Both the position numbers and the translations under genes were made by a program. Below are positions 12,504-29,608 of a stretch of 53,223 nt of DNA, piece after piece (positions within the stretch are counted from its first letter, which is position 1; the number at the start of each line of letters is the position of its first letter). This stretch comes from a virus (lineage: Duplodnaviria; Caudoviricetes): positions 1-53,223 of the IMG/VR virus record IMGVR_UViG_3300048999_000018; one strand, 5' to 3'. The notes below the pieces were generated by a model, which was not told the origin of the DNA, did not search any database, and was given only the letters and a program-made list of their open reading frames with translations.

Positions 12504-13286
12504 CTAATCAGGAATACAGACGTTTGCGGTCTTCACGTACGCATCGAGGTAGGTCTCTCGCTTGTCGCCGTTATACGTGACCTCGTAGTACATGCGGTCC
12601 TCGATCGTCGTGCAGACCATTGCCTTCCAGTTCTGCAGCGTCTTGCTATACCACACGACGAAGAGCTCATAGGCCGGCTTCTCGCTGTAGCCGATGTATC
12701 CCTTGTCGATGTGGTCCTTGACGATCCGTATGGCCTTCGTCTGGTAGTTCTCCGGAGATCCGGTCTTGTACAGAGACTCGGAGGCGATGGGCTCGATTCG
12801 AGCAACCCCAACTACAGGAGGCTTTCGGCTCTCGTCCAAGCAGAAACCACATCCAAGCTGACCTTGCGGAGCGTGAAACTGGTGAGCATCCGCGTCCCAA
12901 ACAAGCATCGTTCCTTCAGGATAAGGCTTGTACATTGCCGCTTCTATCGAGCATGGGCCGCATAGACCAGGACCACCACACCTCGCCACCGCGTTGGGCT
13001 TGTTGGTCATGACAGTTCCAGTGACGTGATGTCCGTGCTTCGTGTACGCCATGGCGTCGTTTGCTCTCTGCTCGATCACGGATAGGGCGGGAAAGTTCCG
13101 GATGATCTCTGGCGGAATTTCGACGACCTTCTTCTTGCCCCACCAAGTTCGTTTCGGGCGGTTGATGACTGAGGCTTCGACTATGGGGTCTCCATAGGTT
13201 TCACCATCGAGATCGATCGGCGTGGCCATCATGCTCCTTAAATGCTCACCGTACATTTTGCCGTCGAGGAAGGGCGGAGAATACAT
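12504..13286 (-). CDS. Multi-domain protein with C-terminal DUF6275-like domain
   Basis: VVWYSKTLQNWKAMV.TT..D.MYYEVTYNGDK.ETYLDAY.K; central RCGGPGLCGPC and CGFC Cys motifs. Confidence 0.7.
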   Translation of the reverse strand: MYSPPFLDGKMYGEHLRSMMATPIDLDGETYGDPIVEASVINRPKRTWWGKKKVVEIPPEIIRNFPALSVIEQRANDAMAYTKHGHHVTGTVMTNKPNAVARCGGPGLCGPCSIEAAMYKPYPEGTMLVWDADAHQFHAPQGQLGCGFCLDESRKPPVVGVARIEPIASESLYKTGSPENYQTKAIRIVKDHIDKGYIGYSEKPAYELFVVWYSKTLQNWKAMVCTTIEDRMYYEVTYNGDKRETYLDAYVKTANVCIPD

Positions 13287-20211: not shown

Positions 20212-21035
20212 TAGTCAGCGCCTTGGTCAAGGACCTTCTCGGAGTACATCCCCATGTCCCGGACAATCTCGTAGTCGGTCCTGAAGCGCTCAGACCGAAT
20301 GTACAGCACGTTGGGGTCTCCGTCAGCTCCAGCGAGCTCGGCGAACTTCATCAGATTGGTGAGTCCGATGGTATCATTCACTCGTTCGAGCTGAATGTCA
20401 GCCTGGTTGGTCACCACACCATCGACATCATAGTAGGTCACCGTCTCCTGGTCGTAGTCCAGTTCAGCGCTCATGAATGTGTCCTGACTGATGACGTACG
20501 GAGCCTTGTGCTGGGGCGGGAGCTCCTCACCAGGGATATCCGACTTGAGAGGCACAATCGTACGAGCCTCGGGAACCTTGGGTGACTTCGACTTGCTTAC
20601 GTTGTTGTAGAACACCCGCTCGGGCTGCTTCTTCTCGGATCGAGGAGCAGGCTTCTCTTCGACGACTTCCTCGGTTGTCCTGCTCAGCTTCGGAGGCTCG
20701 TTGATTCCCGCGTAAGACAGAAGAGCGTCAGAAGCCTCTTCGACCATCGTGCTGGGTACGGTCTCTTCGGCGACCTCGTTCAAATCGACCGGCTTCTGCT
20801 TCTCCAAGGCCTTAATGAAACTCTCATCGCTAACGGCCGCAGCCATCAAGCTCTCTTCGAGCTTCTTCTCGTACAAGCCCTTGTAGAACTCCTTGGTCTT
20901 CTCCGTCTCCTCCTGCAGCATCTCGGCGTATACGTGCTCGAAACGCTTTTTGGTGGCGAAGTAGCCGAGTCCGACGCCGGCCGCGGAACACAGTGACGCC
21001 GTGGCGATTACGATTTGGTTCTGGGTGATCATCAC
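20211..21035 (-). CDS. Hypothetical protein with N-terminal membrane anchor
   Basis: Hydrophobic N-terminus, acidic body, PYVI...YY..DGV C-terminal domain. Confidence 0.75.
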   Translation of the reverse strand: MMITQNQIVIATASLCSAAGVGLGYFATKKRFEHVYAEMLQEETEKTKEFYKGLYEKKLEESLMAAAVSDESFIKALEKQKPVDLNEVAEETVPSTMVEEASDALLSYAGINEPPKLSRTTEEVVEEKPAPRSEKKQPERVFYNNVSKSKSPKVPEARTIVPLKSDIPGEELPPQHKAPYVISQDTFMSAELDYDQETVTYYDVDGVVTNQADIQLERVNDTIGLTNLMKFAELAGADGDPNVLYIRSERFRTDYEIVRDMGMYSEKVLDQGAD

Positions 21036-21979
21036 TCTTCTCCGTTCCCAAGCAAGTCGTAGACGATGCCGTCGACGTTGAAGTCCAAAATGGTAGACTT
21101 CTCTGCGCCGTTGACGAACTGCTGACCCATGTAACCATTGCGCTTGCCGTTGAGAACGCCGAAGTCAATGACGCTGTCTCCGCCACGAGGATTGTCACGA
21201 ACCCATCCGACGATAGCGCCGGCCTTGGTACGAGACAGACCCAGTGCGTCGTAGACCTCGTTCAGGAACACGTGGCCTCGACCGTTGAGCAGATCGTTCA
21301 TGTACATCTGCTGAGACCGGATGAACATGGAGTTGTACGAGGGTTCCGGAGACCAGTTGTCAGAAGCGCCCTTCTCGAAGATCCGAGCGTAGATCGAGGG
21401 GAACTGCTTCTTGTCGAGTTCACGAACAGTCTTGACCGCGATACCCTCATCGGTCTCGACGGCGATTTCCTTCTCGACTACGCCGAAGCGGAACTCCTGG
21501 TCCTTGTCCTCGCCGTACTCCTTGACGACACGTGCTCGGTAGTCCTTGAAGCCCTTCTCCACTGCAGCGTAAGCCGCGGTTAGAGCAGCATTCCGACGAG
21601 TCAGGATGACGTGAGATCCGGTCAGGCAGCCGACAGAGACGACACCGACAATGAACGCCGGCGCGTAGAGCTGAGCGATCTTCGACGCAGTCTTCACACG
21701 AACGAGAAGACGGTCCTTCTTGCTGTCCTCGTCAGTGTAGTCCTCGCGCTCAAGATTCTCGGCGGCCTTGATCTTGTTGTTATCTTCGTCGGCCTCCTTC
21801 AGAACCTGATCCATCTTGAGAGTTGCGTGGCTTGCGAGTACCACCGTGGCGACGAAGCCCACAGCTCCGACCCCGAATAGCAGCACCGGAGAGTGCTTCT
21901 GCGTGATCAGGACCTGTCGACCCACCTTGCTGGTGATCGAGTTCCTGAGAGCCTTGACGTTCAAGAGCTTTCCTTCCAA
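21032..21979 (-). CDS. DUF6353-like protein
   Basis: KHSP.LL..G.VG...AT.K, AAL.AAY...F..YR.RV, G.VFLNEVYD.LG, GW, LDFNVDG. Confidence 0.7.
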   Translation of the reverse strand: MEGKLLNVKALRNSITSKVGRQVLITQKHSPVLLFGVGAVGFVATVVLASHATLKMDQVLKEADEDNNKIKAAENLEREDYTDEDSKKDRLLVRVKTASKIAQLYAPAFIVGVVSVGCLTGSHVILTRRNAALTAAYAAVEKGFKDYRARVVKEYGEDKDQEFRFGVVEKEIAVETDEGIAVKTVRELDKKQFPSIYARIFEKGASDNWSPEPSYNSMFIRSQQMYMNDLLNGRGHVFLNEVYDALGLSRTKAGAIVGWVRDNPRGGDSVIDFGVLNGKRNGYMGQQFVNGAEKSTILDFNVDGIVYDLLGNGEE

Positions 21980-23142: not shown

Positions 23143-23177
23143 TAGGGGTCTCATTATAGCCCCTGTTATTACTGCGA
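23143..23177 (-). promoter_or_regulatory. Promoter-like repeat, copy 8
   Basis: TCGCA-gtaata-ACA-ggggc-TATAAT-GAGACCCCTA. Confidence 0.8.
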
Positions 23178-23363
23178 GCCGTACTTGTCGAGGAACTGCT
23201 CTTTGGTCAAGATCGTAGAAGCCTTGTCGTCGATGATTCTCGGCTCCTTGACGTACGGGCGTTCCTTTAGCCAAGCAATCACTTCAACAGCAGAGCCCTC
23301 GTACAAATATCGCATGTGAGCATCTGCGATACCGAAGAGAGGAGGAAGACGCATATTCGTCAC
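23169..23363 (-). CDS. Hypothetical protein
   Basis: Related to the 7699 N-terminus and to 26487-26681. Confidence 0.6.
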   Translation of the reverse strand: MTNMRLPPLFGIADAHMRYLYEGSAVEVIAWLKERPYVKEPRIIDDKASTILTKEQFLDKYGSQ

Positions 23364-23545
23364 CTATTCGGGTATCTTGGCCGGCGAACCTTACCACAAG
23401 GCTTGTTCAGGCATTTTCCTGTAAGCCGATGCGTCAAAAGACCATCTGGACGGTTTTTTGATTGGATTCTCGTCCAACCGTTCTCGGTTTTTACGTGCCA
23501 TTCGTTCATGCCGAACTCTCGTTTCTTACGATGGATGCAGGGCAC
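23360..23545 (-). CDS. Small basic hypothetical protein
   Basis: 61 aa, GGGGA RBS, GTGA overlap with the next gene. Confidence 0.5.
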   Translation of the reverse strand: MPCIHRKKREFGMNEWHVKTENGWTRIQSKNRPDGLLTHRLTGKCLNKPCGKVRRPRYPNR

Positions 23546-23548
23546 ATG

Positions 23549-23672
23549 TTCCCCGAAAGGGGGAGTCGGCCTCGGCTGTCGTTTAAAATTAGCATCCGGA
23601 ATAAGATCCTGTGAGACCCCTCGGCGTGCGGGCAGGACCTTTGCTAATTCCCCACATCTTTTATCGGATGGT
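23549..23672 (-). ncRNA. Candidate structured RNA / leader
   Basis: Nested stems 23587-23594/23642-23649 and 23603-23611/23633-23641 (G-U pair only on the minus strand); 21-nt loop contains AGGGGUCUCA. Confidence 0.4.
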
Positions 23673-23673
23673 A

Positions 23674-24210
23674 CTAGGCGGCCTTATTCTTCCGCTGCAT
23701 GGCCGCGACGAGATGCGCCTTACTCATCTCCTTCGGGTCGGAGCCGGCGACGCGGGTGAACTGGTCATCCGTCATCTCCAGGAGAGCATCCATGGTGTAC
23801 TCCTTGGCGGCATCTCCTTCGGGCAACTCGTGATCAACGACCTTCTTGGCCATATCGGCAGGGATGATGCCTGTGATGAACTCGACGGCGCCGTCGGTCT
23901 GACTCACCAGGTCCATGAACAGTTCCGAGTACGCGTCGGACTGAAGGAACCCGTTGGTGATGTCTTCGGACTTGATGAAGCGCTTGCCGTCCTCGGACTT
24001 CTGACCCACGGACATTGATAGGATGCCCTTGAGAGCGGCGATGATCTTGCCGCCGTCCTCGGACTTGATCAGGTCCTGGAGATGCCCCGAAAGGCCTCCT
24101 GCGTGGCTGAGCTCCAACTCCACAAGCTCGGACTTGTTGAGGTTGAAGTAGAAGTCGTCAGTGACCGAATTACCTTCGAGGTCACTGTAGGTTATCGTTT
24201 TCTTGAGCAT
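23674..24210 (-). CDS. Probable tail assembly chaperone-like protein, displaced from the tail module
   Basis: MLKKTITY.D..G....DFYFNL.K.EL...S.DGKRFIKS.....F.Q..AYS.LFM.L pattern recalled from genes adjacent to the major tail gene in related phages. Confidence 0.55.
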   Translation of the reverse strand: MLKKTITYSDLEGNSVTDDFYFNLNKSELVELELSHAGGLSGHLQDLIKSEDGGKIIAALKGILSMSVGQKSEDGKRFIKSEDITNGFLQSDAYSELFMDLVSQTDGAVEFITGIIPADMAKKVVDHELPEGDAAKEYTMDALLEMTDDQFTRVAGSDPKEMSKAHLVAAMQRKNKAA

Positions 24211-24253
24211 GTTAGTGCCTTTCGGGTAATTGCTCGCGAGTCCGAATTAGGCC

Positions 24254-24538
24254 TTAGACCTCTTCGATGGCCTCGGTCTCGGCGGTGTCCTCCACCAGCG
24301 AACGGCTTCGGACCACACGACCCACGGCGAGCATCGCAACCGCCGACGCCACGAAGACGAGGACCTTGCGGTTCTTCTTGACGAGAGCCTTCGCCTTCTG
24401 AACGACCGTCTGGGTGTCGTCGCTGACGACGATCACAGTCTTGCCGTCCTCGGCCACATCGTCGACGACGGTCACCTGACTGGGGACAGAGATCTTCTTC
24501 TCGTCAGCAGCGGTCACGGTCGGCTTGGAGCTGTTCAC
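24254..24538 (-). CDS. Small membrane protein
   Basis: 94 aa, VLVFVASAVAMLAVG segment. Confidence 0.65.
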   Translation of the reverse strand: MNSSKPTVTAADEKKISVPSQVTVVDDVAEDGKTVIVVSDDTQTVVQKAKALVKKNRKVLVFVASAVAMLAVGRVVRSRSLVEDTAETEAIEEV

Positions 24539-24584: not shown

Positions 24585-25364
24585 TCAGTGAAGCCGGCTG
24601 TAGTTCCTTACCGGCCTGGCGCTGAACGTGATGGAGATGCATGGACGTCCATCGTCGGAGAGAGTTGTCGAGTAATCGACCTTGAGCAATTCGTCCGTGT
24701 TCCAGCCAATCTCATCGGACTCATCCGTGCGAGCAAGTCCGATCAGGTCGTAGTAGTCAGTCAACGGTGCGTACGTGTTGTTGATGACCTGTTCGTTGAT
24801 GTCATTCACGGCCTTTCGAAGCGTTTCCATGTCGCTTTTGAAATATCGGCCCGTGAATGCATCGAAGCAGAGTACCTCGTGTGGCATGAGGATGATTTCC
24901 TGCTTCGTGCTGGGGGTCTTATCGACCTTTTCCTGCGCGAGCTCGTCTCGAACCGTCTGCTCCTTCTTTTCCCCGAACTTCGCGAGTACCTTCCCCTTGT
25001 ACTCTTCGTAAGCCTTTTCGGAGAGAGAATATGCGGAAGCCAAAGCCGCCGCGCGACGTGTTCCGATGTGATTCGCGCTGATGATCGCCGTAATCGTCAG
25101 AGCTGCACTTGCCGCCGCAGGTACGTATAGCTTCCAGACGAGTTCGGCCTTCTCCTTGAACGGGATGTCTTCGAATTCGTCTTCGGTGTGTCCCTCAAGG
25201 AACTGGTTGCGCTCAAGAGCCAGTATCTCGGCTGCCTTGAACGAGGCCTTCCCAGTGAGATATGCGGTAGTGATAGCGCCGGTAACACCGATTGCCGTCA
25301 GAATCGCAGGAGTGTTGTCGCCGGCGAGTTTCCCGGCACGCTTGGCTAGTATGCCAAGATTCAT
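24585..25364 (-). CDS. DUF6353-like protein (paralogue of 21032-21979)
   Basis: P.ILT.IGV.G...TAYL..KA, AAALASAY.LSE, D..TGRYF.S, IGWN. Confidence 0.75.
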   Translation of the reverse strand: MNLGILAKRAGKLAGDNTPAILTAIGVTGAITTAYLTGKASFKAAEILALERNQFLEGHTEDEFEDIPFKEKAELVWKLYVPAAASAALTITAIISANHIGTRRAAALASAYSLSEKAYEEYKGKVLAKFGEKKEQTVRDELAQEKVDKTPSTKQEIILMPHEVLCFDAFTGRYFKSDMETLRKAVNDINEQVINNTYAPLTDYYDLIGLARTDESDEIGWNTDELLKVDYSTTLSDDGRPCISITFSARPVRNYSRLH

Positions 25365-26158: not shown

Positions 26159-26193
26159 TAGGGGTCTCATTATACCCCATGTATTTTCTGCGA
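26159..26193 (-). promoter_or_regulatory. Promoter-like repeat, copy 7
   Basis: TCGCA-gaaaat-ACA-tgggg-TATAAT-GAGACCCCTA. Confidence 0.8.
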
Positions 26194-26201
26194 ATCGAGA
26201 T

Positions 26202-26239
26202 AAAAACCTAAAGACCGGGTTAGGGTCTTGTTGGTTTTT
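26202..26239 (-). terminator. Cassette 6 hairpin (CTAAC loop)
   Basis: AAAAACC..AAGACC-CTAACCC-GGTCTT..GGTTTTT. Confidence 0.7.
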
Positions 26240-26450: not shown

Positions 26451-26485
26451 TAGGGGTCTCATTATAGCCCCTGTATTTCTTGCGA
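26451..26485 (-). promoter_or_regulatory. Promoter-like repeat, copy 6
   Basis: TCGCA-agaaat-ACA-ggggc-TATAAT-GAGACCCCTA. Confidence 0.8.
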
Positions 26486-27990: not shown

Positions 27991-28028
27991 AAAAACATAA
28001 AACCCGTGTTAAGGGCTTTAGAGGTTTT
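27991..28028 (-). terminator. Cassette 5 hairpin (TTAAC loop)
   Basis: AAAAC..TAAAGCCC-TTAACAC-GGGTTTTA.GTTTTT. Confidence 0.65.
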
Positions 28029-28246: not shown

Positions 28247-28281
28247 TAGGGGTCTCATTATATGCCGTGTTTTTTCTGCGA
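28247..28281 (-). promoter_or_regulatory. Promoter-like repeat, copy 5
   Basis: TCGCA-gaaaaa-ACA-cggca-TATAAT-GAGACCCCTA. Confidence 0.8.
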
Positions 28282-28586: not shown

Positions 28587-28621
28587 TAGGGGTCTCATAA
28601 TAGGCCGTGTTTTTTCTGCGA
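28587..28621 (-). promoter_or_regulatory. Promoter-like repeat, copy 4
   Basis: TCGCA-gaaaaa-ACA-cggcc-TATTAT-GAGACCCCTA. Confidence 0.8.
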
Positions 28622-28650: not shown

Positions 28651-28685
28651 AAACATAAAGGCCGGGTTAGGGCCTTTAGAGGTTT
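28651..28685 (-). terminator. Cassette 3 hairpin (CTAAC loop)
   Basis: AAAC..TAAAGGCC-CTAACCC-GGCCTTTA.GTTT. Confidence 0.65.
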
Positions 28686-28818: not shown

Positions 28819-28853
28819 TAGGGGTCTCACTATAATCCTTGTAATTCCTACGA
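28819..28853 (-). promoter_or_regulatory. Promoter-like repeat, copy 3
   Basis: TCGTA-ggaatt-ACA-aggat-TATAGT-GAGACCCCTA. Confidence 0.75.
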
Positions 28854-29147: not shown

Positions 29148-29181
29148 TAGGGTCTCATTAAAAGCCATGTTTTTCTTGCGA
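29148..29181 (-). promoter_or_regulatory. Promoter-like repeat, copy 2
   Basis: TCGCA-agaaaa-ACA-tggct-TTTAAT-GAGACCCTA. Confidence 0.75.
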
Positions 29182-29186
29182 ATGCG

Positions 29187-29240
29187 AAAAAACAAAGGGC
29201 ATGTAAGAGTCGTTTAAACTCTCGCACGCCCTCTGCTTTT
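29187..29240 (-). terminator. Cassette 1 hairpin with U-tract
   Basis: AGGGCGTG.AGAGT-TTAAACG-ACTCT.CATGCCCT followed by TTGTTTTTT. Confidence 0.7.
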
Positions 29241-29573: not shown

Positions 29574-29608
29574 TAGGGGTCTCACTATACCCTATGTATT
29601 ATATGCGA
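29574..29608 (-). promoter_or_regulatory. Promoter-like repeat, copy 1
   Basis: TCGCA-tataat-ACA-taggg-TATAGT-GAGACCCCTA. Confidence 0.8.

Follow-up and report, generated by a model that had tools for sequence, protein, structure and literature searches.

A probable new family of structured phage RNAs with an apical loop complementary to the tail of a repeated promoter cassette

The virus record IMGVR_UViG_3300048999_000018 (Caudoviricetes) of IMG/VR, taken here as the window over its whole length of 53,223 bp, carries a series of repeated promoter cassettes and, in one gap between genes of the same strand, a sequence that would fold into an RNA hairpin whose loop is the complement of the block that follows the promoters. 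Why should an RNA loop spell out the complement of a promoter tail? A first-pass annotation, made from the letters of the window, had offered several answers: an RNA guide or decoy acting on open promoters or 5' leaders, a sensor that gates the ribosome-binding site of the next gene, or simply an inverted DNA binding site. Comparison with relatives makes it very probable that the segment 23534-23658 (- strand) is one member of a previously undescribed family of structured phage RNAs, in which an outer helix (P0) encloses a P1-P2 arm, a P3 region and conserved junctions, the tip of the arm shows the anti-tail sequence (U)AGGGGUCUC, and loop and tail occur together and change together. We favour the reading that this new family consists of base-pairing regulatory RNAs directed at the promoter-proximal block that the promoters of one family have in common, as far as sequence comparison can suggest it.

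The eight cassettes of the window have the consensus TCGCA-N6-ACA-N5-TATAAT-GAGACCCCTAY-(0-4 nt)-AAGGA-N-ATG, in which the tail GAGACCCCUA stands directly 3' of the TATAAT box and 0-4 nucleotides (nt) before the ribosome-binding site; a promoter scan found no -35 box at sigma-70 spacing in them. The last ten loop bases were said to be the exact complement of TGAGACCCCT, a word present in seven cassettes and one C shorter in copy 2, and this is indeed so. The window has eight copies of the word: seven, all of the - strand, come after a -10 box, and the eighth lies on the + strand (23612-23621); 0.13 copies are expected from shuffles, and 0 of 100 shuffles reach eight. The complementarity spans tail positions 1-11 and ends at the edge of the -10 hexamer. 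The typical apical loop of the family shows (U)AGGGGUCUC, which is complementary to GAGACCCCUA; 55 of the 94 distinct elements have AGGGGTCTC exactly, most others differ by one or two bases, and the motif is much more conserved than the remaining apical region. The bases following GGGGTCTC are A in 25 of 66 loops, matching the last T of the -10 box, and then C in 48, while those preceding it are A in 55, T in 36 and G in 30 of the same 66. Duplex folding predicts a loop-tail core of 9-11 bp; its energies, which came with unrealistic long-range pairs, were set aside.

The same arrangement is found in cultured phages. GACCCCT is strongly over-represented on the strand of the genes in RosaAsantewaa, HotFries, Popy, Petito and ReqiPepy6, each of which has one inverted copy, located inside the element. 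In HotFries (locus L008, position 4073) the tail also stands without a promoter core directly before a ribosome site and ATG. For Vardy, a cluster DJ Gordonia phage, a repeated '50-bp motif' in which a TATAAT -10 box is followed by a start codon some 50 nt later has been described in the genome's middle part and proposed as a possible regulator of expression (PMC9671010); the available text of that paper mentions no RNA element, inverted copy or complementarity. We see the Vardy-type cassette in the DJ phages Petito, Gill and Jodelie19.

Relatives of the element were collected with a pattern built from two invariant blocks (TCCGGAYGC and TAAACGACARCCG), which matched 46 IMG/VR loci and 82 metagenome loci and gave no match in bacterial and archaeal genomes searched at one genome per species. 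BLAST of the gap against GenBank phages returned 63 records (Streptomyces 42, Gordonia 17, Rhodococcus 4), with matches mostly in unannotated gaps. After removal of duplicates, 94 distinct sequences make up the family; they come from phages of Streptomyces, Gordonia and Rhodococcus and from uncultured phages of soil, with one copy per genome. A covariance model trained on 47 of these sequences finds exactly one element in the window (model R1, cmsearch, 109.3 bits, E-value 7e-27; 23526-23668 with flanks). Rfam 15 gave no match at gathering score over the whole window, and the sole match over 23300-23800 at E-values up to 10 was a chance 15.8-bit togavirus element outside the feature. A literature search did not find the core word TAAACGACAGCC and turned up no description of the element, supplements aside, and the literature matches to GAGACCCCTA concerned unrelated subjects among the matches listed.

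The two stems claimed earlier, of 8 bp and 9 bp with a G-U pair on the - strand, are present, and RNAfold recovers both from the window sequence. In an alignment of seven gaps the blocks GGGG, GCA, AGGGGTC, TCCGGA, TAAACGACA and CCC are invariant, and the outer stem shows compensatory changes (TTAGCA/TGCTAA, TCAGCG/CGCTGA, CCAGCA/TGCTGG, TTGGCA/TGCCAA). The resulting layout consists of P0, P1, a 3'-side internal loop NNUCCGGA, a P2 of variable length, the apical loop, the junction UUAAACGACAGCCG, P3 and the junction AACAUGYGCCC, the CCC of which closes P0, so that the 5' GGGG has the 3' GYGCCC as its partner. RNAalifold recovered P1 and P0. Three helices were scored (P0 4 bp, P1 8 bp, base of P2 6 bp). 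For 47 sequences aligned with MAFFT, 92.0% of the cells are paired, compared with 77.4% after shuffling and 32-53% in slid controls, and changes on both sides are seen in 138 cells (38.4 expected). The corresponding values for 87 distinct rows, taken from 100 model matches with known duplicates and some metagenome loci left out and aligned by fitting to the model, are 95.6%, 78.6% and 34-52%, with 292 cells changed on both sides (72.2 expected). In these 87 sequences P1 has both-side changes at six of its eight pairs and 98.4% of cells paired, and P2 covaries at all six basal pairs with 91.3% paired; the inner four pairs of P0 are 94-96% paired, and the outermost of these covaries (GC, AU, GU, UA, CG). 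A gap-free count anchored on words gave standard pairs in 345 of 376 cases for P1 and 231 of 282 for P2, with fractions of 0.44 and 0.47 after sliding by one base. The covariation thus supports P0, P1 and P2 as real RNA helices.

The strand can be read from the same data. G-U pairs outnumber A-C oppositions by 28 to 8 in P2 and by 12 to 10 in P1, and every gene from about 0.4 to 31 kb lies on the - strand; because of the G-U excess in P2 and the direction of the genes, the RNA is assigned to the gene strand, as the first-pass annotation had placed it. A candidate sigma-70-type antisense promoter on the + strand was rejected, as AATAAGATCCTG, which precedes TGAGACCCCT there, has no similarity to the cassette core or -10 box and no promoter-like site was detected. 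P3 is 3-50 nt long (median 24), and 54 of 89 sequences fold there at -3 kcal/mol or below. The search pattern included neither the loop motif nor the 5' GGGG nor CATGYGCCC. In many members P2 reads AGGGUC/GACCCU and resembles a tail hairpin. A universal switch between P2 and an alternative P2 was considered and rejected, since the P2 strands of the window and of loci L017, L021, L032, L034 and L045 are unrelated to the tail.

If the loop is meant for the tail, the two should follow each other from genome to genome. Promoters were located by their upstream half alone and their tails were read afterwards, in those 56 elements whose locus contained one promoter or more and in which P1 could be anchored with confidence (the remaining 38 of the 94 were dropped). 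Of the 56, 46 have a best match between loop and tail of the same genome of 7 nt or more, and 34 one of 9 nt or more. Summed over all 56, the own-genome match is 498, as against 468.9 +/- 6.9 for permuted data (0 of 5,000 permutations reach it); for 16 longer genomes it is 143, as against 120.2 +/- 5.0 with permuted loops (0 of 20,000). Individual changes are matched as well. The tail GAGAACCC, found at all three promoters of genome G002, is met by the loop GGGTTCTC (also given as GGGUUCUC), and similar pairs of tail and loop are GGAGAACCC and GGGGTTCTCC in G011, GAGACCCCA and TGGGGTCTC in G010, GAGACCCA and TGGGTCTC in G001 and, for one promoter, TGAACCCCTA and TAGGGGTTCA in G005, while G012 and G013 have five-C tails and GGGGG loops.

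A natural control is provided by the phage RNA polymerase. The window encodes an 879-residue candidate single-chain two-barrel RNA polymerase, homologues of which occur in 250 phage records, and all named phages with the element encode a polymerase of this type. In 19 of these 250 records, TCGCR-N14-TATAAT cores were counted together with those followed by a GAGACCCC tail. Eight phages have the tail (tailed/all cores: RosaAsantewaa 1/1, HotFries 1/1, Popy 4/6, Petito 8/9, ReqiPepy6 10/14, Gill 8/9, Jodelie19 5/7, Miek 2/2). In the other eleven it is absent (Mudcat 0/4, Salk 0/6, Camille 0/1, Makai 0/10, CapnMurica 0/8, Qui 0/18, GantcherGoblin 0/7, DizzyRudy 0/3, Serenabean 0/6; in Yotsuba and P092 cores of this kind are absent). 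Where cores exist in the latter group, the core is intact and the tails are heterogeneous. An anti-tail loop is displayed in 8 of 8 tail-present phages, and the canonical loop in 0 of 11 tail-absent ones. Since these eleven keep the polymerase without loop or tail, the loop is tied to the tail and not to the polymerase or the promoter core, neither of which needs the tail. The covariation of loop and tail in relatives, the absence of which had been named as a refutation, is positive, and a functional tie between loop and promoter tail is supported by these comparisons.

The canonical element is present in seven of the eight tail-present phages (in Jodelie19 with ACCGGC as its internal loop). 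The exception, the Streptomyces phage Miek, gave no match to the model at E-values up to 0.5 with filters off over 16 kb. At the place where its relatives have the canonical element, before the last cassette, it carries a different hairpin (L183, 8941-9013) closed by 14 bp (-67.5 kcal/mol, z-score -6.45), the tip of which is GUAGGGGUCUCA. ClubPenguin, a relative of Miek, has a canonical match just upstream of the same downstream gene. Conversely, the Arthrobacter phage Mudcat (L092, 5306-5412) and GantcherGoblin (L184, 6751-6859) have core-only variants at the same gene position, which keep P0, P1, UUAAACGAC and GYGCCC and have neither UCCGGA nor the anti-tail loop; their arms are unrelated, which suggests a conserved scaffold with exchangeable displayed sequences. 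A repeated target of the Mudcat arm was looked for, and 0 forward copies of GGGGGTAA were found; BLAST of this variant returned close relatives only (31 records, all >92% identity), in which no covariation can be read. Yotsuba has a reduced variant with UAGGGUUUG, and in Camille there is no gap between the genes at the position of the element.

Additional core-like copies were noted in a few places. At locus L100 (1966-2248, - strand) two copies stand in tandem, an upstream divergent one of 27.5 bits with TAAATGACCGCCG and a different arm without the anti-tail loop, and the canonical one (66.9 bits) directly after it. Record G004 (locus L071) has, on the - strand near 12637 and far from its canonical element, a second core-like sequence, GAGGGCC...TAAACGACAGCGG...ATCTGTGCCCTC, a possible paralogue with another arm. 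Two copies in opposite orientation on a single 4-kb metagenome contig (L123/L124) most likely reflect an inverted assembly chimera. In the window, the claim that the element has TTTAAACGAC in common with the cassette 1 hairpin is correct (23578-23587 and 29209-29218; two copies compared with 0.10 expected, 1 of 100 shuffles reaching two). That hairpin (29196-29232, - strand, with a T-tract to 29185) stands before cassette 2, is terminator-like, has ACATG..CCCT in addition to TTTAAACGAC, as in the element, and reads AGGGCGUG...UUUAAACGAC...CAUGCCCU; perhaps it is the element core in its smallest form, or else a chance resemblance.

What, then, would the loop do? The element probably regulates the whole set of cassette genes. 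The mechanism that we favour, which is quite possible though short of probable, is that the loop pairs with the GAGACCCCUA leader, beside the ribosome site, and so coordinates the cassette mRNAs. The RNA would be made as the 3' part of early transcripts and possibly freed by processing; its loop would pair over 9-12 nt with the GAGACCCCUA leader, both in cassette transcripts, at their 5' end or close to it, and within polycistronic transcripts produced by read-through. The duplex would abut the Shine-Dalgarno sequence and alter ribosome access, 5'-end-dependent decay or both, for all cassette mRNAs together. The early genes would then share one RNA switch, located at the border with the replication operon and acting by repression or by protection. 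We prefer pairing between RNAs because the tail abuts the Shine-Dalgarno sequence, because the promoter-less tail of HotFries precedes a ribosome site and because known antisense RNAs act through seeds displayed in loops. The element has the hallmark of a trans-acting base-pairing RNA, namely a seed that matches several targets and is conserved with them.

Several observations weigh against this picture. The fold of the window sequence itself (-43.3 kcal/mol, z-score -0.01) is no more stable than that of shuffles on either strand, and the case for structure is made by the comparison with relatives and not by energy. A look through sequencing runs for the region listed no RNA run, the runs offered being DNA from soil metagenomes. 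In single-sequence partition functions the mean unpaired probability of the motif (0.42) equals that of the whole element (0.42) and exceeds 0.5 in 24 of 76 sequences (0.62 in the window), and in many members the motif can alternatively pair with the P2 3' strand GACCCU; the structure supported by covariation places it in the apical loop. That TCCGGAYGC and TAAACGACARCCG never vary in the large set follows from their use in the search pattern. The permutation tests ignore the relatedness of the genomes, so that the individual matched changes weigh more. Ten of the 56 elements match the sampled tails by less than 7 nt; for L108, L127 and L171, where few promoters were sampled, the match is 4-5 nt, and Yotsuba matches by 5 nt only. 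G008 combines a GGG loop with CCCC tails, and nine other genomes have loops that suit its promoters better; G003 has lost the loop motif, yet GACCCCTAC persists in one of the four tails listed for it. Co-variation would be equally expected if one DNA-binding protein read both sites, and a polymerase mimic or pairing with melted promoter DNA would account for it just as well. Finally, if the host sigma-A polymerase starts transcription at the usual 6-8 nt after TATAAT, primary transcripts would begin inside CCCC and retain about 4-5 complementary bases, and pairing would therefore need read-through RNAs or a G1 start by another polymerase.

In other readings the target is not a leader RNA. That the element serves as a sequence-specific guide or mimic for transcription, its loop invading melted promoters or acting as a pseudo-template for the phage polymerase, which is related to RNA-dependent RNA polymerases, is conceivable though doubtful. 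The mimic version, in which the loop is bound by the host sigma-A holoenzyme or the phage two-barrel polymerase and acts by sequestration or by short 6S-like templating, is unlikely. It would account for the loop being the template-strand sequence of tail positions 1-11 up to the -10 edge, for the same loop being displayed on two different scaffolds, and for the presence in every named element-bearing phage of an ADFDGD polymerase with helix-turn-helix (HTH) modules; since the cassettes have no -35 box at sigma-70 spacing, something other than the host enzyme could conceivably read them, and relatives in the polymerase family are described as including RNA-templated enzymes in the available text of two papers (PMC2919709; bioRxiv 10.1101/842583). 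Its difficulty is that eleven phages retain polymerase and promoter core but have neither loop nor tail, so that the loop is tied to the tail. A junction with a hairpin loop is also unlike the long helix and central bubble of 6S RNA, and no 6S or other Rfam match was obtained. The guide version, with the loop hybridising to non-template GAGACCCCTA in the transcription bubble and locking or blocking open complexes as RNA-guided feedback on early promoters, is improbable. The complementarity does begin right after the -10 hexamer and covers the region expected to be melted, extending in 25 of 66 loops to the last T of the hexamer; loop and tails co-vary and co-occur, and in 35 of 82 elements the cassette promoter lies 3-20 nt downstream. 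Nevertheless, the polymerase holds the non-template discriminator strand in the open complex, the fixed closeness of the tail to the ribosome site suits a role at the RNA level better, a promoter-less tail occurs before a ribosome site, and no precedent in bacteria or phages is known to us, a point for which no literature search was made. In either version one small RNA would turn a whole family of promoters off or on, at the level of DNA or of the polymerase, and the conserved core with exchangeable arms (Mudcat, GantcherGoblin, L100) and the separate scaffold of Miek would amount to a programmable display platform.

We give little credence to an inverted duplex DNA operator, in which a phage protein reads GAGACCCCTA at every cassette and the inverted copy here while the surrounding RNA fold does something unrelated, for example as a 3'-end stabiliser or a processing site. 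A protein reading both sites would explain why loop and tail co-vary and co-occur, the element often abuts a promoter, and the phage encodes several HTH proteins; left unexplained are the constant position of the site at the tip of a covarying hairpin, the same word on the different and very stable hairpin of Miek and the single inverted copy per genome, and two overlapping functions would be needed where one suffices. Equally improbable is a structural RNA with another job (protein binding, processing or antitermination through the core of P0, UUAAACGAC and GYGCCC), the loop being the relic of an inverted tail. The core-only variants (Mudcat, GantcherGoblin, the L100 tandem paralogue and the second core-like copy of G004) and the tail-hairpin-like P2 of many members would suit this, but a relic would hardly be exact in 55 of 94 elements, far above the rest of the apical region, follow the changes of the tail, be absent exactly where tails are absent and reappear on a different scaffold in Miek. 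The sensor proposed in the first-pass annotation, an alternative pairing GGGGA/UCCCC/GGGGA that gates the ribosome site of the next gene, is contradicted by the comparison and is very improbable. Its three words are present in this window alone, where RNAfold draws a CCCC/GGGG hairpin, and P3 is conserved neither in sequence nor in length; the 5' GGGG pairs with GYGCCC in P0. What was taken for a ribosome-binding site and start codon, GGGGAACAUG, is the conserved junction AACAUGYGCCC, which is retained where a promoter and not a gene follows directly; the variable P3 and the 35 of 82 elements with a promoter within 3-20 nt do not fit a cis-regulatory leader or riboswitch. The ATG in this junction opens a frame of 13 codons only, and the next gene more likely starts at ATG 23509, which is kept in relative L028.

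Table 1. Positions of the RNA element, its parts, the promoter cassettes and two related genes in the window.
Feature	Positions	Strand	Remarks
Whole structured RNA element, P0 5' strand through P0 3' strand	23534..23658	-	cmsearch and alignments
P0 5' strand GAUGUGGGG	23650..23658	-	GGGG conserved; pairs with 23534-23542
P1 5' strand AATTAGCA (as RNA AAUUAGCA)	23642..23649	-	8-bp helix
P2 5' strand AAGGTCCTG (as RNA AAGGUCCUG)	23633..23641	-	9 bp, one G-U
Apical loop CCCGCACGCCGAGGGGTCTCA, 21 nt	23612..23632	-	enclosed by P1 and P2 stems
Anti-tail motif AGGGGUCUCA, final ten loop bases	23612-23621	-	exact complement of TGAGACCCCT
P2 3' strand CAGGATCTT (as RNA CAGGAUCUU)	23603..23611	-	partner of P2 5' strand
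Internal loop AUUCCGGA, 3' side, between P2 and P1	23595..23602	-	NNTCCGGA identical in 7/7 named-phage sequences from BLAST
P1 3' strand TGCTAATT (as RNA UGCUAAUU)	23587..23594	-	partner of P1 5' strand
Junction UUAAACGACAGCCG, single-stranded block of highest conservation (in the large set partly imposed by the search pattern)	23573..23586	-	retained in divergent Yotsuba, Mudcat (TTAAACGACC) and GantcherGoblin
Variable P3 region, in the window a CUCCCC/GGGG hairpin	23551..23572	-	no sequence conservation
Junction AACAUGUG, then P0 3' strand CCCUGCAUC	23534..23550	-	CATGYGCCC conserved though outside the search pattern
Cassette 1, TCGCA-N6-ACA-N5-TATAGT-GAGACCCCTA	29574..29608	-	
Cassette 2, tail GAGACCCT / GAGACCCTA, one C shorter	29148..29181	-	
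Cassette 3, TCGTA variant	28819..28853	-	
Cassette 4	28587..28621	-	
Cassette 5	28247..28281	-	
Cassette 6	26451..26485	-	
Cassette 7	26159..26193	-	
Cassette 8, sole cassette downstream of the element	23143..23177	-	
Upstream gene, 178 amino acids, phrog_4282, Pfam PF23803	23674..24210	-	element follows its stop codon
Candidate single-chain two-barrel RNA polymerase, 879 amino acids	446..3085	-	phrog_4291, 1349 bits, residues 3-873

The genomic setting is shared among the relatives (Table 1). A gene of similar size to the upstream gene precedes the gap at the same position in HotFries, Popy, Petito, ReqiPepy6 and Gill, and tblastn identified homologues of the 178-residue protein in Mudcat, Salk, Camille and Yotsuba. 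All the longer genomes that were inspected have the element immediately ahead of their last one or two cassettes, where these adjoin the long replication operon, and the spacing of 3-20 nt mentioned above runs from P0 to the promoter core. In the window the promoter expected 3' of the element has decayed, and cassette 8 is the next one. A scan of 23526-23668 detected nothing that resembles a terminator; CAUCGUAAGAAAC comes after P0, and no intrinsic terminator follows the element. The region is flanked by paralogous DUF6353 / phrog_2152 genes (24585-25364 and 21032-21979, - strand), and the genes at 23674-24538 have a GC content at third codon positions of 0.81-0.84, very high relative to their neighbours.

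The 879-residue protein has a GADFDGD metal loop, HTH modules at both ends and a sigma-70 region-4-like HTH at residues 841-873, features by which it belongs to the YonO-like or phage 1706-type single-chain two-barrel polymerases; sequence search found no relative of solved structure. Its gene is always at the right genome end in the 250 phage records. This polymerase of an actinophage supercluster has been described in silico in papers whose available text covers the protein and the shared gene order (PMC2919709; bioRxiv 10.1101/842583), and the words 'promoter', 'intergenic' and 'non-coding' are absent from the main text of the preprint (bioRxiv 10.1101/842583).

The surroundings of the cassettes show some further regularities. 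Terminator hairpins that precede cassettes in the window (28656-28678, 27998-28020 and 26211-26229, - strand) have a common CCCUAAC loop. In Popy (L009; 5907, 6311, 7625 and 7959) the 5' arm of the terminator, GACCCCUAC, is the promoter tail itself, paired with UGGGGU; because the arm has the tail sequence, the anti-tail loop could compete at such terminators too. In ReqiPepy6 (L011, 4174) and several other records, some cores continue into GAAAGGAAAG... or GAGAAGGA... instead of the tail. One such core of ReqiPepy6 runs into the start of a putative tRNA gene (GTAGCTCAGTTGG), and others have no start codon nearby; such tail-less cores possibly drive small RNAs.

The element adds a well-supported structured RNA family to a large set of phages that are tractable and suited to teaching, namely the SEA-PHAGES Gordonia and Streptomyces clusters and the Rhodococcus ReqiPepy6 group. 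The coordinated change of loop and leader provides a hypothesis on the coordination or shut-off of early genes that mutations can test, in actinobacterial hosts that, to our knowledge, lack Hfq. If the target were promoter DNA or polymerase, a new principle of transcription control would be involved, and an exact pairing rule of 10-12 nt would offer an easy means of engineering gene expression in phages.

Among described systems, the Vardy 50-bp motif is the same promoter cassette as the one found here, the RNA element and the inverted copy being absent from the available text of its account (PMC9671010). The element itself measures about 125 nt, a junction scaffold with conserved strands that lies in sense orientation in the same operon array as its proposed targets. 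Antisense RNAs such as CopA/CopT and Sok/hok and small RNAs of phages and prophages such as DicF and lambda OOP resemble it in having a hairpin-displayed seed of 9-12 nt, sites adjacent to ribosome-binding sites in several mRNAs, and seed and targets that change together; the element differs from them in that scaffold and orientation and in that its target is one shared block after a whole promoter family. 6S RNA is about 180 nt long and largely double-stranded with a large central bubble, binds the RNA polymerase holoenzyme and templates a short product. Like 6S RNA and the mycobacterial Ms1, the element carries promoter-derived information that may act globally on the transcription machinery; in contrast to 6S RNA it is without the long helix, the central bubble and an Rfam match, its motif is in a terminal loop, and its mimicry is by sequence, through a specific 10-nt block, and not by shape. 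The HK022 put RNA and other cis-acting antiterminators are likewise structured RNAs in an early phage operon before a long downstream operon, but these act by shape on their own polymerase and have no complementarity to promoters, whereas the element described here has it.

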